From: Fidelibacterota bacterium
GTDB lineage: Bacteria > Fidelibacterota > Marinisomatia > Marinisomatales > UBA2128
DNA: 5,453 nucleotides
NCBI GenBank assembly: GCA_046861645.1
Contig: JBHHUM010000116.1
Location: 1-5,453, forward strand
Direction: 5' to 3'
In this document: one piece after another, positions 1 to 3,000 of the stretch
How the letters are laid out: each line of letters begins with the position of its first letter
Position numbering within the stretch: position 1 is the first letter of the stretch
Position numbers: made by a program

Positions 1-3000
1 AACTCCTAAAAGTACCTTTTTCATAACTTTTTCCCACCAATCATCTAAGATAACCTACGGAAAATTTAGGATTTTTCCAGCTCTTTTTGCTATCAATCTT
101 TCTTAAGAAGTGTGCTTCAAAAGCTTCATTTTAATAATATAACTTTTTCTGTTTGTCTCTGTGATGGAGATTCCAAAACAACAAAATAGATGCCTGAAGA
201 TAGCCCTTCAGCATTCCAAATTAACTGATGATATCCAGCAGGAACTTTTTCTCGCTTTCTAAGAATAGTTAATTGAGCACCCAATAAGTCAAAAATTGAC
301 AATTCAACCACCGCGTTTATGGGAAGATAAAAAGATATCCTGGTTTGGTGGTTGAATGGATTAGGATAAGGTGAATTTAGTATTATTCTTTCAGGAACAA
401 TTGACTGCTTCTCTTCAAAGTTGACTCCAACTTCTGGTATTTCTCCCATTAATTCTTCAATTATGGCTATCATCTCATTCTCATTGAATCCGTAAGCTGA
501 ATGTCTTACAGTCATATTATGATCTAAAATAATATTGTGAGGCACATACGGTACTCCAAATAAATCCACAAGTGAGTAATCAGTATCATCTAACAGTGGA
601 TACGAGGGTCCAAAAGTTTCTGCCCAGTCACTGCAGTAATAGGGATAACCCCAATCAAATCCAATGCCAATAATTTGCAGTCCTTGGTCTTTAAATGATT
701 GAAAAATGGTTTCCGTAAACGGAGCCTCCGCCTGGCAATTAGTTCACCAGGAAGCAAAGAAAGTCAACCAGACTACATGGTAATTCCCTCCATTGAAATC
801 CCCAAAATAATCATACAAACTTATATCACCTTCGCCATTAGCACATATTGGAGCTACAAAATCCTCAACAATTTCCCCCACTCCGTAAGGTTGGGCCTTG
901 AGGGAAATAAGAGAAGCTATCATAATACTCAGGGAGAATACTCTTTTCAGCATATCGAAGTCTTTATTCGATTTCAAAGTCTTACTTGGGACAATTTAGA
1001 TCCATTTAATGTAAATAGTTTGTCGCCCTGCTGACAAAAGGAGATATAGCTAATACTCATTTCAGAAACTACTGGTAAGAGTAATCGTCAGAGCATCTTC
1101 AATACCGGGTACGTAAACACAAACTCCACTATCACATTTAAGTCCACCCTGGAGAGATCCATAAAAAACACTAAAAATAGTTGCTGGTGTCAGATATATA
1201 GAACCTTGAATACCAAACCACTTATTGGTCATGTTTACACCTGAATTTCTCAGAATTTTCTCCAACCAACTGTCATTGTCGGGATTGGTATTTTGTGGAG
1301 TTCCTGCTTTAACAGCTGAAGCATAATCATAAACAAATCCAGCAGTATATTTTGAGGGTTTGCTAAAAGTTAAAGCCATATAACGATAATAATAAGGAAC
1401 AGATAAAGTTTCATCAGTAGTAATACTGTCAATTTCTCCGGAAGATAAATTTCTATATACCAGATAATTTCTATCCTGATAATCTTCCCACTGATGTTCC
1501 CAGTATAGTGTCATACCCCATCCGGAAGGGAGGTTAAAAGAAAGTTGAGTAGGTAGTGTAAATAATTTTCTTTTTTTCCAATCCAATTGTTCCAGAGTAT
1601 GATCTTCCCAATAGGATAGTTCACGTATACTTTCTTCGTACTTCTCTACCATATCACTGGAGTTAGCAAGCATGACTCTAAGGTCAAGGTTAAGTGGTGA
1701 GTAGTGGTAATTTATTTCACCATATAATTCCATGAATGGGTAGAAACCTTCATCATCAGAAAACCAAAATAACGACTTGGTTTCGATTTTATCCCACCCG
1801 TCAAAACCGTCGATATAACGGATATCCCGAAAACCGGTATGCCGACTGCTTTGAGCGTAGTTGAATGTTAGAAAAAGATTTTCAGACACGTTCAGATTAA
1901 ATTCAACCTGAATACCTACTTCATCTCCGAAATCCATAACGTGTGGAGTTCTACCCAAAAGTGTTGAGCTATGTTCTTTGAATGCAGTTGGACCATTCAT
2001 GGTGGGAGTTAACCGCCCTAATCGATAAGGTAAATGTGAACGGATATCAGGTTGGCTAATGTCAAAGTAGTAATTTTTATAGTCTAATGTTAATCCCCAA
2101 TTCCCTGAATAATATGATAAACTGGCATACCCTCCCCATCCTGAACTTTTACGATCATAGTAAAGCCACTCGAAAAGTGGAGTGGAATAAAGACTGTCAG
2201 CATCATCAATTTCCAGAGACCTTTTTAATACTTCGATATAGAAATCAACATCTGCTCCAAAGTATTCGATAAACAAGCCGGGTGAAAACGTACGAGTATG
2301 TATTGACATAGAATCAATCGTTGTAACAGTACCGTCCAAACTTTGCATCTTCCCAAACCAGGGATTAGTCGCATCGATATCTACACCATAAAAACCTGCT
2401 GAAAGACTGGGTAAGATATCATTAACCGTTAACAAAAGGACATTTACCATAGAATTTTCAGAAAAATCTCTAATTCTGGGATCCACACCTGGTCCTTGAG
2501 GAAGATGTCTCCCTCCAGTCGTTTTTCCACTAATGATATCAAAAGTCAGTTTATTCTTAGGTTGAGCCGTGAGCCAAATACCTCGTAAAGTTGAATCCCA
2601 GTCTATACCTTGATTCTCCCACATGTTTAAAGCCAGCCCCCGGCCAATCAGTCCGTAGAGATCACCAGCATTTACTGACAAATAATCACTCTCCCAAGTT
2701 AACCGCAACTTGCGGAGACCCAGATGATCCGGTCCGATCTGAGGCGGAGAGCTGAACTCAAAGTTCGACCAAAGCGTGAAGTTACTGTACCCAGCTGTTA
2801 CATCGAGCAAATGCTCACGATAGACGTATGACCCCCGGATCGTGTCACCTATTTCAATTGGCGGCTGAAGCCCACTGCCGTATTGAGCGGTTAGTCCGGC
2901 TGAGAAGTAAGCTCCCTGTCCATAGATCAAAGAAATAAAAATAAGAATTGGGGTAAGTCGTTTTATGGGAAGCACAATTAGGTTGAATATTTACTGCGAT

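Follow-up and report, generated by a model that had tools for sequence, protein, structure and literature searches.

A predicted thioredoxin-fold selenoprotein with a type IX secretion sorting domain in Fidelibacterota

Results

We describe a gene of a Fidelibacterota bacterium (assembly GCA_046861645.1) that probably encodes a 275-residue selenoprotein, which would be exported via type IX secretion (T9SS) and act as a thiol-disulfide exchanger of the ResA/TlpA type. The gene, called selenoredoxin in the following, lies on contig JBHHUM010000116.1. All coordinates refer to positions 1..5,453 of this contig, the whole stretch of DNA that was analyzed and that is termed the window here (Table 1). 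In its boldest form the survey's finding had been that such proteins are selenocysteine oxidoreductases brought to the cell surface by the T9SS: the selenocysteine part of this reading is now strongly supported, whereas export to the surface fits the tests that were run and stays a prediction.

Table 1. Features of the window and their coordinates
Feature	Position	Strand	Remarks
Short T9SS-tailed selenoredoxin, coding sequence	126..953	minus	275 codons from ATG 953 plus stop
Predicted signal peptide, residues 1–20, MLKRVFSLSIMIASLISLKA	894..953	minus	read from the sequence by inspection
ResA/TlpA-like thioredoxin-fold domain	438..890	minus	residues 22–172
UGA, read as selenocysteine codon	744..746	minus	U70 counted from ATG 953; U78 from TTG 977
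Putative resolving Cys73 of UxxC	735..737	minus	nearly invariant, at least 90% of 60 sequences
Candidate SECIS hairpin	717..733	minus	AGGCGGA 727–733, loop GGC 724–726, UCCGUUU 717–723
T9SS type A C-terminal sorting domain	129..368	minus	residues 196–275; PNPFN motif, ends ...KVILLK
True stop TGA	126..128	minus	relatives have their C-termini at this place in the alignment
DUF6029 outer-membrane beta-barrel	1062..2975	minus	directly upstream of selenoredoxin
TlpA/ResA-like periplasmic CxxC redoxin	2991..3488	minus	W-C55-A-P-C58; conserved neighbour of DUF6029
441-aa exported protein	3485..4810	minus	first gene of the conserved cluster; no family match
Next gene, start codon and first 8 codons	1..24	minus	MKKVLLGV

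A single reading frame interrupted by one TGA

Translated with table 11, the minus strand contains two open reading frames, 744..977 (77 aa, ending in ...FFASW) and 126..569 (147 aa). Gene callers start at TTG 977 and break the gene at 744; ATG 953 is the likely start codon. When TGA is translated as U, positions 126–977 form one frame with no stop besides the internal TGA at 744–746 and the terminal TGA, just as the survey had proposed for a frame broken by a single TGA in a W-U-x-x-C motif. The sequence around the site reads VVWLTFFASW-U-TNCQAEAP, with selenocysteine as residue one of the redox motif U-T-N-C. An independent contig from a public sequencing run retains the internal TGA, which is therefore not an assembly slip. 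Like the selenoredoxin gene, the neighbouring DUF6029 gene is terminated by TGA, so that the codon otherwise acts as a stop here and the standard code applies. In public databases most relatives are C-terminal fragments of 155–210 or 399–406 aa that comprise the tail domain only. A scan for promoters and terminators gave no excess over shuffles.

The internal TGA is conserved and replaced by cysteine in relatives

The comparison covers 119 homologous domains, encoded at 111 loci of 99 Fidelibacterota genomes and drawn from among 150 listed matches with 61 further matches left out. At the codon aligned with 744–746, 76 of the 119 domains, from 67 genomes, have TGA, whereas 17 encode Cys there, 22 Ser and four Asn, and every TGA form has this single internal TGA except one, in which two follow each other (L089). 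At least 66 other genomes carry TGA forms and at least 17 carry Cys forms; the survey had counted at least 25 of the former and had also reported the latter. The Sec machinery that it had listed is present as well, all of it above curated cut-offs: selA (531 bits) and selB (395 bits) adjoin on one contig (C163), selD (390 bits) itself has one TGA, and tRNA-Sec (63.9 bits) bears the anticodon TCA. Judged by eye from a table, selA (E<=1e-60) occurs in 64 of the 67 genomes with TGA forms, and the three others are 86–88% complete.

A covarying hairpin downstream of the UGA

The putative SECIS hairpin has a spacing of 17 nt from UGA to loop; its stem begins 10 nt and its core CGGA-GGC-UCCG 13 nt 3′ of the UGA. 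Both in position and in sequence, the hairpins of this gene and of its paralogue on contig C138 are those that the survey had described. A hairpin of at least 4 bp with a 3-nt loop in the same register is found in 74 of the 76 TGA forms as compared to one of 43 other forms. Among the TGA forms it is of one type (4–7 bp, G-N-Y triloop, fixed register), and the two Sec forms without a hairpin at that register (L035 and L103) show other hairpins. The Glu codon within the hairpin is GAG in 75/76 TGA forms versus 12/43 others.

Covariation, the point on which the survey had left this element in doubt, was analyzed and found in the Sec forms. In the set of 75 distinct Sec sequences, pairing extends to 89.9% of cells, 95 cells are altered on both sides (36.9 in shuffles) and the covariation score is 0.408 versus 0.143, a value reached by none of 500 shuffles and by no slid control (<=0.103), although this shuffle control overstates the signal because the sequences are related and the codons conserved. 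For 41 distinct non-Sec sequences the corresponding values are 45.6% of cells paired (shuffles 45.2) and a score of 0.123 versus 0.118, which was reached by 176 of 500 shuffles. The hairpin sits in the conserved codons x-E-A/V-P, and part of the pairing is thus bought by amino-acid conservation; the contrast with the non-Sec forms is the stronger argument for a SECIS element. At pair four, C-G is found in 66 sequences and U-A in six, a change that couples Ala-to-Val with a silent CCG-to-CCA exchange.

Folded alone, the hairpin of the contig reaches −7.1 kcal/mol with a z value of −0.45, equalled by 54 of 200 shuffles; as this is no better than chance, its significance rests on the comparison with relatives. 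Limits for bacterial SECIS elements given in the accessible part of PMC13188914 are a loop of 3–9 nt, a stem of 4–16 bp, a spacing of 16–37 nt, a G at loop position one or two and an MFE of <=−7.5 kcal/mol: with its loop GGC, G in first place, 7 bp and 17 nt the hairpin lies within four of these five, and its MFE of −7.1 falls just short. An Rfam scan of the whole 5,453-nt window at E<=1 returned no match. When the genome was scanned for UGA codons in a frame open on both sides whose following hairpin has its loop at nt 21–23, four sites were obtained, namely three redoxin paralogues and a peroxiredoxin (Prx) with the motif PxxxTxxU, compared to none in the reversed genome; without the register condition the same scan gave six matches in the real and six in the reversed genome, hence no enrichment. 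The compact element (7 bp, G-N-Y triloop, fixed register), which is common to the redoxins and the Sec-Prx, provides a simple search rule for the phylum.

Given the alignment of TGA with Cys, a covarying SECIS that is absent from non-Sec forms and the Sec machinery, it appears nearly certain from sequence comparison that UGA 744–746 is decoded as selenocysteine. SelB with Sec-tRNA(Sec), recruited by the 7-bp hairpin, would insert the residue, and the terminal UGA, which has no hairpin, would stop translation.

Paralogues in the same genome

The copy on C138 is a 512-aa open frame that reaches the contig end and contains one TGA in ...LFTSW-U-PSCQSEAP, with the domains AhpC-TSA, TSP_3 and Por_Secre_tail. 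Frame, TGA and Por_Secre_tail of this second gene pair agree with the survey, whereas FlgD_ig, also named there, stays under its cut-off of 27 with 21.4 bits. Contig C173 holds a third copy, which combines LVIVD repeats and an Ig-like domain with the Sec redox domain, and at least four architectures containing this domain exist. TSP type 3 and LVIVD repeats are typical extracellular modules. The gene that starts at the left end of the window is most likely a long Sec paralogue, the remainder of which lies on C138. In a genome of the same genus (G099) the DUF6029 gene is followed by the short form and then by the long form, and the public-run contig extends 4056 nt past the left end of our contig.

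The redox domain resembles ResA and TlpA

The domain matches Pfam AhpC-TSA (PF00578) with 49 bits at a cut-off of 26, and its match to PF08534 likewise exceeds the cut-off. In its AF2 model (pLDDT 91.3) the predicted fold superimposes on ResA with a TM of 0.85–0.87 and an rmsd of 2.0 Å; matches to ResA and DsbE range from TM 0.83 to 0.87 as opposed to 0.58–0.74 for Prx. A profile search of the PDB led to the C-terminal domain of DipZ (1.6e-16) and to ResA (5.5e-16). Invariant residues are C37 (843–845), E76, C107 (633–635), W110 and the cis-proline P138. With a fold that includes the ResA-type insert, the motif, E76 and P138, the domain belongs to the TlpA/ResA-like group (cd02966), U standing for the first Cys, and its PF00578 match together with the UxxC motif U-T-N-C also fits the description of a ‘Prx-like thiol:disulfide oxidoreductase’. 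The survey's caveat that the family may already be known therefore holds: the domain is that of known predicted Prx-like/TlpA-like UxxC selenoproteins. Several narrower assignments were rejected. NCBIfam ResA (NF002854) gives 49.1 bits at a cut-off of 170, NF041054 (ResA-like WAxxUGC) 42.1 bits at a cut-off of 300, the motif here being W-U-T-N-C, and NF045500 (Omp28-related selenoprotein, GOS_C) does not match at E<=0.01. It is also no true peroxiredoxin, as PxxxTxxC/U is absent and T-F-F-A-S-W precedes the U.

We infer the chemistry and substrates of the selenoredoxin as follows. The mature protein would be a ResA/TlpA-like catalyst of thiol-disulfide exchange in which Sec70 acts as exposed attacker and Cys73 resolves the intermediate, giving a selenenylsulfide; the invariant pair C37/C107 is probably joined in a disulfide with a structural role. 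The enzyme would most likely act on disulfides of proteins outside the cell or on its surface, reducing or isomerizing them. Our confidence that the protein is a protein-disulfide reductase or isomerase rather than a peroxidase is about even.

Signals for export and type IX secretion

The N-terminal 20 residues read as a signal peptide with predicted cleavage between MLKRVFSLSIMIASLISLKA and Q, which would make Gln21 the new N-terminus. A simple pattern, a small residue and then Q, recurs at the corresponding site of 83 among 110 relatives, and residues 2–20 are helical in the AF2 model. At the other end, Por_Secre_tail (PF18962) scores 38.5 bits (cut-off 27) and NCBIfam TIGR04183 40.4 bits (cut-off 23), so that the complete gene bears both the signal peptide and the T9SS tail ascribed to it by the survey. 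The sorting domain is modeled as a beta-sandwich (residues 197–273, pLDDT >90) and is preceded by a linker (173–190) of low confidence in the model. Components of the secretion system are encoded in the genome: SprA (610 bits) and PorU (685 bits) exceed their cut-offs, and the best match to PorV (147 bits) stays below the cut-off of 250. The search for the GldM family was uninformative, with no match in this genome and none in any control genome. Searched against its own genome the protein was matched 94 times, mostly through the tail, which about 90 other genes share. By a simple pattern, ten of the 76 TGA forms have no usual tail at their end.

Export fits the signal peptide, the type A domain, the presence of SprA and PorU and the extracellular-type modules of the paralogues. 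On these predictions, transport past the inner membrane is very likely and a T9SS-dependent surface or extracellular location is likely. The signal peptide would direct the protein through the Sec translocon, and the sorting domain would pass it on to the T9SS, with SprA as translocon and PorU as sortase, to be released or attached to the cell surface. To our knowledge no electron donor exists outside the outer membrane, which leaves sustained reductase activity at the surface unexplained.

A conserved operon with a TlpA-like protein and DUF6029

The selenoredoxin gene lies 3′ of a conserved operon for a TlpA-like protein and a barrel of the DUF6029 family, whose genes adjoin in 30 of 30 loci. 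The barrel has about 26 strands, no plug domain, the invariant cysteines C614/C619 and a C-terminal Phe. Foldseek with its model returned generic large barrels only (OprC, FrpB, FimD, MtrB; TM ∼0.4), and the ESM Atlas led to DUF6029 only. For the 441-aa protein the Atlas gave FlgO/CsgG/LpoB-like leads at 0.87–0.93, and its N-terminal part is possibly of this type. A docking model joins the TlpA-like protein and DUF6029 with a score of 0.81 versus 0.00 for controls; this confident model for the TlpA-DUF6029 pair gives a domain of unknown function a testable role.

It is conceivable, though quite unlikely in our view, that a thiol/selenol relay crosses the entire cell envelope and has the selenoredoxin as its outermost member. 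An inner-membrane carrier of the DsbD type would send electrons via the TlpA-like protein to the Sec enzyme at the surface and on to external disulfides; the TlpA-like protein would plug the 26-strand DUF6029 barrel, and a barrel loop with the invariant Cys pair would touch the plug. Such a relay, which would explain reductase turnover outside the cell, would correspond to the porin-cytochrome conduit MtrCAB but reduce disulfides.

Discussion

Alternative explanations concern the decoding of the UGA, the location of the protein and its chemistry. If the TGA were a true stop, leaving a pseudogene or two small genes, or if it encoded a standard amino acid via an altered code, a thioredoxin domain severed in the active site would be unable to fold in the former case, and in the latter TGA would not terminate both the selenoredoxin gene and its neighbour, which rules out an altered code. 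Gene callers and public databases agree with a stop, and the hairpin of the contig copy taken alone is no better than chance. However, 67 genomes keep the TGA, in a total of 76 genes whose frame and domain are conserved to either side of it, and 17 other genes have Cys instead; the hairpin 3′ of the TGA covaries in TGA forms only, and the Sec machinery is complete. We consider this explanation close to refuted and the chance that it is correct as minute.

A real selenoprotein could also reside in the periplasm, with a tail that serves as fold or anchor domain or mediates only partial secretion, and be supplied by DsbD as are ResA, TlpA and CcmG. All close structural relatives are indeed periplasmic or membrane-anchored reductases, the genome encodes a DsbD-type membrane electron carrier (102 bits), the operon is shared with a periplasmic TlpA-like protein, PorV misses its cut-off, the GldM search gave no match (as in the control genomes) and no extracellular reductant is known. 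Yet the periplasm is already served by this tailless TlpA-like neighbour, and the tail of the selenoredoxin exceeds the curated T9SS type A cut-off, recurs on about 90 other genes and is accompanied by SprA and PorU above cut-off and by paralogues whose TSP3 and LVIVD modules are characteristic of proteins outside the cell; we therefore regard a periplasmic enzyme as unlikely. Somewhat less probable still is a surface selenol peroxidase for H2O2 or organic peroxides, in which Sec70 would be oxidized to the selenenic acid and Cys73 would resolve it. Glutathione peroxidases and Sec-peroxiredoxins use Sec for catalysis, and selenium withstands irreversible over-oxidation, which would suit an exposed site; moreover, AhpC/TSA is the best Pfam match and the peroxiredoxins Bcp1, Bcp4 and LsfA are among the fold matches. 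These fold matches are more distant than those to ResA and DsbE (TM values above), PxxxTxxC is missing in favor of W-U-x-x-C-x-x-E-x-P as in ResA, TlpA and CcmG, and a Sec-Prx with the proper motif (P-K-A-N-T-P-G-U) is encoded separately in the genome.

The bacterial selenoproteins known to us are treated as cytoplasmic or periplasmic, and type IX secretion is known chiefly for hydrolases and adhesins. If a T9SS-exported thiol-disulfide exchanger is the correct reading, a scarce trace element is spent on chemistry beyond the outer membrane, and a redox catalyst joins the cargo repertoire of the T9SS. In the literature we found no selenoprotein or selenocysteine described in connection with type IX secretion, and nothing relevant on selenoproteins or type IX secretion of Marinimicrobia. 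Since such genes are split or truncated in public databases for dozens of marine Fidelibacterota genomes, surveys of selenoproteomes and secretomes miss them.

With the thiol-disulfide reductases ResA of B. subtilis, TlpA, CcmG/DsbE and the C-terminal domain of DipZ the protein shares the fold (TM 0.83–0.87, rmsd ∼2 Å), the W-C-x-x-C-x-x-E-x-P motif including the conserved Glu, the cis-Pro and a predicted non-cytoplasmic location. It differs from all of these by an identity of only ∼20%, Sec as attacker, the additional invariant C37/C107 and a T9SS tail instead of a membrane anchor. The surface TlpA-like redoxins Etrx1/Etrx2 of S. pneumoniae and SdbA of S. gordonii are among the fold matches (4hqz, 5um7); they are lipid- or membrane-anchored, Cys-using proteins of Gram-positive bacteria, in which CcdA supplies them through just one membrane. 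Like the proteins of NF041054 and NF045500 it would be an exported thioredoxin-fold selenoprotein, but it is a member of neither family and has U-x-x-C where NF041054 has UGC.

As a carrier of a T9SS sorting domain and a thioredoxin-type motif, the selenoredoxin has a precedent, similar by description, in HBP35 of P. gingivalis. According to the accessible part of PMC2907840, HBP35 combines a thioredoxin motif with a CTD, has thioredoxin activity in vitro and occurs in a modified form on the cell surface; its secretion is Por-dependent according to the title of PMC3120885. Described as a Cys-using, haem-binding protein of Bacteroidota, HBP35 is set apart from the Sec-containing, TlpA/ResA-like branch found here. 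Predicted bacterial selenoproteins in the available text of PMC13188914 include a ‘Prx-like thiol:disulfide oxidoreductase’ or ‘Prx-like 1’ (PF00578, UxxC), ‘Prx-like 3’ (PF08534) and ‘thiol-disulfide isomerase-like’ proteins (cd02966, UxxC), and tables of PMC1088965 and PMC2398784 give Prx-like and isomerase-like kinds with counts. As far as the accessible parts of these three surveys go, the families are classed by redox domain only, and the terms ‘secret*’, ‘periplasm*’ and ‘signal peptide’ do not occur in that of the 2026 review PMC13188914. The selenoredoxin resembles these UxxC kinds in its thioredoxin fold, the matches to both PF00578 and PF08534, Sec as first residue of UxxC, the existence of Cys homologues and the occurrence in marine bacteria. 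Going by the descriptions, it differs from them in its signal peptide, the T9SS tail, the at least four architectures and the TlpA-DUF6029 operon. What is new is thus the T9SS sorting tail and the gene context only, attached to a redox domain that is a long-predicted kind of selenoprotein.

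A probable secreted redoxin gene with one internal TGA

On the minus strand, translation table 11 yields two ORFs, 744..977 and 126..569. Taking TGA as a residue joins them into a single frame with no further stop, which bears out the survey's finding of one reading frame broken by one TGA. The 275-residue product from ATG 953, referred to here as selenoredoxin, carries the redox motif W-U70-T-N-C73-Q-A-E76-A-P in a thioredoxin-fold domain and ends in a sorting domain with a PNPFN motif and the final residues ...KVILLK. AhpC-TSA (49 bits, cut-off 26), Redoxin (30.4), Thioredoxin_8 (32) and Por_Secre_tail (38.5, cut-off 27) were matched in Pfam, and TIGR04183, the NCBIfam model of the T9SS (type IX secretion system) type A domain, gave 40.4 bits (cut-off 23). 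Two further NCBIfam models were rejected with scores far under their cut-offs: ResA (49 bits, cut-off 170) and the selenoprotein model NF041054 (42 bits, cut-off 300).

Features of the window and their coordinates
Feature	Position	Strand	Basis or remark
Selenoredoxin frame	126-977	-	open save for the internal TGA
Internal TGA	744-746	-	read-through translation
Terminal stop, likewise TGA	126-128	-	read-through translation
N-terminus MLKRVFSLSIMIASLISLKA then Q		-	signal-peptide-like stretch, read from sequence
SECIS-like hairpin	arms 727-733 and 717-723, loop GGC 724-726	-	
Further gene, start codon and eight codons (MKKVLLGV)	1-24	-	window edge
Spacer between short and long gene	40-85		conserved in L032 1395-1445
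DUF6029 gene	1062-2975	-	
TlpA-like gene	2991-3488	-	
TlpA-like and DUF6029 pair	1062-3488	-	

From 60 family members AlphaFold2 built a model (pLDDT 91.3) that comprises a helix (2-20), the thioredoxin-fold domain (22-172), a low-confidence linker (173-190) and a beta-sandwich (197-273). Foldseek matched the redox domain to ResA with a TM of 0.85-0.87 and an rmsd of 2.0 Å, and also to DsbE, the C-terminal domain of DipZ and surface redoxins such as Etrx2 and SdbA; searched against solved structures, the family profile found DipZ (1.6e-16) and ResA (5.5e-16). C37, E76, G98, C107, W110, P138 and the tail's PNPFN are invariant in the 60 sequences. C37 and C107, which presumably form a structural disulfide, are retained even where the active site is lost.

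Decoding of the UGA as selenocysteine

We regard decoding of the UGA at 744-746 as selenocysteine (Sec) as near certain. The genome encodes adjoining selA (531 bits) and selB (395 bits), a selD (390 bits) that itself contains a TGA, and a tRNA-Sec (63.9 bits) with the anticodon TCA according to ARAGORN. The genetic code is the standard one, because TGA terminates both the selenoredoxin gene and the DUF6029 gene. At E<=1e-20, matches to the protein turned up in 131 of the phylum's 401 sampled genomes. From 111 fetched loci (30 from the phylum search, 80 more among the best listed matches, and the own paralogue) every tblastn match spanning the motif was retained and all others were removed before counting, which left 119 domains in 99 genomes. 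The codon aligned with the internal TGA was TGA in 76 domains (67 genomes), Cys in 17 (17 genomes), Ser in 22 (21 genomes) and Asn in 4 (4 genomes), and every TGA form save L089 has a single internal TGA. According to a table read by eye, selA occurs in 64 of the 67 genomes having a TGA form, the other three being 86-88% complete; phylum-wide it is found in 301 of 401. A FastTree phylogeny of the domains, computed with the trait column masked and weakly supported (45 of 116 inner branches open), requires at least 8 changes of state; TGA forms are spread over most clades, Cys forms appear at about six points and the Ser/Asn forms group in one clade.

The Ser/Asn clade holds 26 relatives (loci L050-L099) in which the attacking residue is replaced (T-S-R-x-C or D-N-F-T-S) and the fold, the C37/C107 pair and the T9SS tail are retained; these look like redox-dead or one-cysteine surface proteins. 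L089 (1703-1750, genome G244) reads W-U-U-P-C from TGA TGA, which could mean two Sec residues in a row, an error or a broken gene; its closest relative L086 has TGA GGA there. In the Cys-form relative L069 (genome G012) a TAG interrupts the frame within the domain (...PCSCTQ*ANLG...), probably marking a pseudogene or a sequencing error. In selD (G000:C34:25008-25934) the TGA lies in the context G-S-G-U-A-C-K and is followed by two hairpins, one with the loop UAA at nt 21-23 and, further on, one of 7 bp with the loop GUU. About 7 kb from selD, a short frame (C34:32445-32582) repeats its N-terminus including the same TGA, possibly as a partial duplicate.

A covarying hairpin behind the UGA

Counted from the U of UGA as 1, the SECIS pairing joins nt 14-20 with nt 24-30 around a three-base loop. 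At this fixed register at least 4 pairs form in 74 of 76 TGA forms and 7 pairs in 41 of them; the 43 other forms stay below 4 pairs, save one that has 4. L035 and L103 have no hairpin at the register and other hairpins nearby. The loops in TGA forms are GGC (49), GGU (17), GUU (6), GAU (3) and AGC (1). Both the stem end and the loop G come from a Glu codon, which is GAG in 75 of 76 TGA forms versus 12 of 43 others, a bias that persists although E-A-P is also common among Cys forms.

Covariation, which the survey's finding had flagged as unchecked, was present in the TGA forms and absent in the others. In 75 distinct TGA forms 89.9% of cells were paired (shuffles 73.6%), 95 were changed on both sides (36.9) and the covariation score was 0.408 (0.143), reached by 0 of 500 shuffles, which overstate the signal as the sequences are related. 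For 41 distinct other forms the corresponding values were 45.6% (45.2%), 19 (14.3) and 0.123 (0.118), with 176 of 500 shuffles reaching the score. No slid control of the TGA forms scored above 0.103. At the fourth pair, 66 sequences have C-G and 6 have U-A; the latter couples a GCG-to-GUG change (Ala to Val) with a silent CCG-to-CCA change and occurs at three or more points of the tree. Loop size, stem length, loop G and spacing fit the bacterial SECIS model as described in the relevant passages of PMC13188914; the same passages set a limit of -7.5 kcal/mol, whereas the window hairpin has only -7.1 kcal/mol. Folded by itself, the window hairpin does not outdo its shuffles (z -0.45; 54 of 200 fold as well).

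We scanned the own genome for a UGA followed by a hairpin of at least 6 bp with a G-N-Y triloop and a reading frame open to either side. When the loop had to lie at nt 21-23, four places were found, namely the three paralogues and one peroxiredoxin, and none in the reversed genome; without the register condition there was no enrichment (6 versus 6). The peroxiredoxin (G000:C71:19894; L146 760-1221) reads P-K-A-N-T-P-G-U and scores 86.7 bits for AhpC-TSA. Sec-containing peroxiredoxins are a known kind of selenoprotein. The hairpin of this one is identical in register and loop type to those of the secreted redoxins.

Paralogues, two of them probably in tandem

Two further copies in the genome each have a TGA at the same motif. 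The C138 paralogue is an open frame of 512 aa with AhpC-TSA, TSP type 3 repeats and Por_Secre_tail; that on C173 (L144; G000:C173:1-1627) has four LVIVD repeats and an Ig-like domain, then the Sec redox domain with the motif W-U-P-V-C-G-P-E-F-S-D and the hairpin loop GUU. Both are truncated by contig ends. In six relatives (L045-L048, L052, L060) a Cys-form short gene has an LVIVD-type Sec form just upstream.

The gene that starts at the window edge is most likely the long Sec paralogue, with the rest on C138. In G099, of the same genus, DUF6029 is followed by the short form and then the long form, with a spacer similar to that of the window. A public-run contig of 8151 nt covers window 1-1100, extends 4056 nt beyond the left end, and retains the internal TGA, with three differences at 310, 408 and 915. 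From this start, the order in G099 and the public-run contig, C143 (the contig of the window) and C138 most likely abut, with the selenoprotein genes in tandem. The spacer is conserved across two species of the genus and contains an imperfect palindrome, GGAAAAATCC...ATTTTCC, a possible regulatory site.

Association with a TlpA-like and DUF6029 module

The window's five genes, all on the minus strand, are the glnS end, a 441-aa exported protein, a TlpA-like CxxC redoxin, DUF6029 and selenoredoxin. DUF6029 lies immediately upstream of the T9SS redoxin in 35 of 111 loci, beside Sec and Cys forms alike; when 14 of these were extended upstream, the TlpA-like gene preceded DUF6029 in 13, with the 441-aa gene in 11 and glnS in 6. 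As a query, DUF6029 matched 55 of 151 genomes. Because a TlpA-like gene lies directly upstream in all 30 fetched DUF6029 loci (L161-L190, across the phylum) and a T9SS redoxin downstream in only 6, the core module is the TlpA-like and DUF6029 pair, to which the secreted redoxin is a frequent add-on. The pair is present also in 1-Mb genomes without the redoxin.

DUF6029 carries a signal peptide, ends in Phe, contains an invariant Cys pair (C614/C619 in 23 sequences) and is modelled as a barrel of about 26 strands without a plug (pLDDT 84.2, pTM 0.80). HHpred relates it to Wzi-like polysaccharide porins (excerpt of PMC9603273), and a rival reading takes the barrel for such a porin; the model resembles solved barrels only generically. 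ESMFold2 docking of the window's DUF6029 and TlpA-like proteins, folded without alignments, gave 0.81, 0.81 and 0.80 versus 0.00 for the best of 3 controls. Among 78 solved complexes, 51 attained the mark of the docked pair, as did 2 among 108 mismatched pairs. Any two runs share 91% or more of their contacts (partner pLDDT at least 83), and the model places the redoxin inside the periplasmic mouth of the barrel. Its ~148 contacts involve the periplasmic ends of nearly all strands, the in-folded loops 107-119, 328-336 and 616, and TlpA residues 54-56 at the active site. The docking supports a predicted binding of the TlpA-like protein to DUF6029. A bold extension of this redox reading, which we consider improbable, is an envelope relay that would run from a DsbD-type carrier, encoded in the genome, via the TlpA-like protein and DUF6029 to the surface Sec enzyme and external disulfides.

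Predicted export and relation to known systems

SprA (610 bits) and PorU (685 bits) are each over cut-off in the genome, and the best PorV-like match (147 bits) is under its cut-off of 250. GldM gave no match in the own genome and, in the control search, likewise none in any control genome. The selenoredoxin protein has 94 matches in the genome, mostly via its tail, and 65 of 76 TGA forms end in a K-x-x-L-L-K type sequence by a simple pattern. A small residue followed by Q marks the end of the signal peptide in 83 of 110 complete N-termini of the family. Gln also follows the predicted cleavage site in the TlpA-like and DUF6029 neighbours, which recalls the Bacteroidetes Q-rule, here outside Bacteroidota; an excerpt of PMC5837995 states that this rule is not valid across the whole FCB group. 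The survey had proposed a Sec oxidoreductase exported to the cell surface: its Sec part stands, near certain, and the tail, SprA and PorU suggest secretion and make surface location likely.

Among the best 120 of 167 database relatives (E<=1e-10), few are full-length (271-274 aa, both domains), the majority being C-terminal pieces (155-210 or 399-406 aa) with the tail domain only. They go by 'hypothetical' or 'T9SS type A sorting domain-containing protein'; not one of the 120 bears a selenoprotein name. In a limited literature collection, supplements excluded, we found no publication linking selenoproteins with type IX secretion. The redox domain itself falls among the predicted 'Prx-like/TlpA-like UxxC' selenoproteins, which surveys have listed since 2004-2008 (passages of PMC13188914, PMC1088965, PMC2398784), so the survey's caveat of a known thioredoxin-like selenoprotein family was justified. 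A Cys-based precedent for the combination of a thioredoxin motif with a CTD is HBP35 of P. gingivalis, described in part of PMC2907840 as active in vitro and surface-located.
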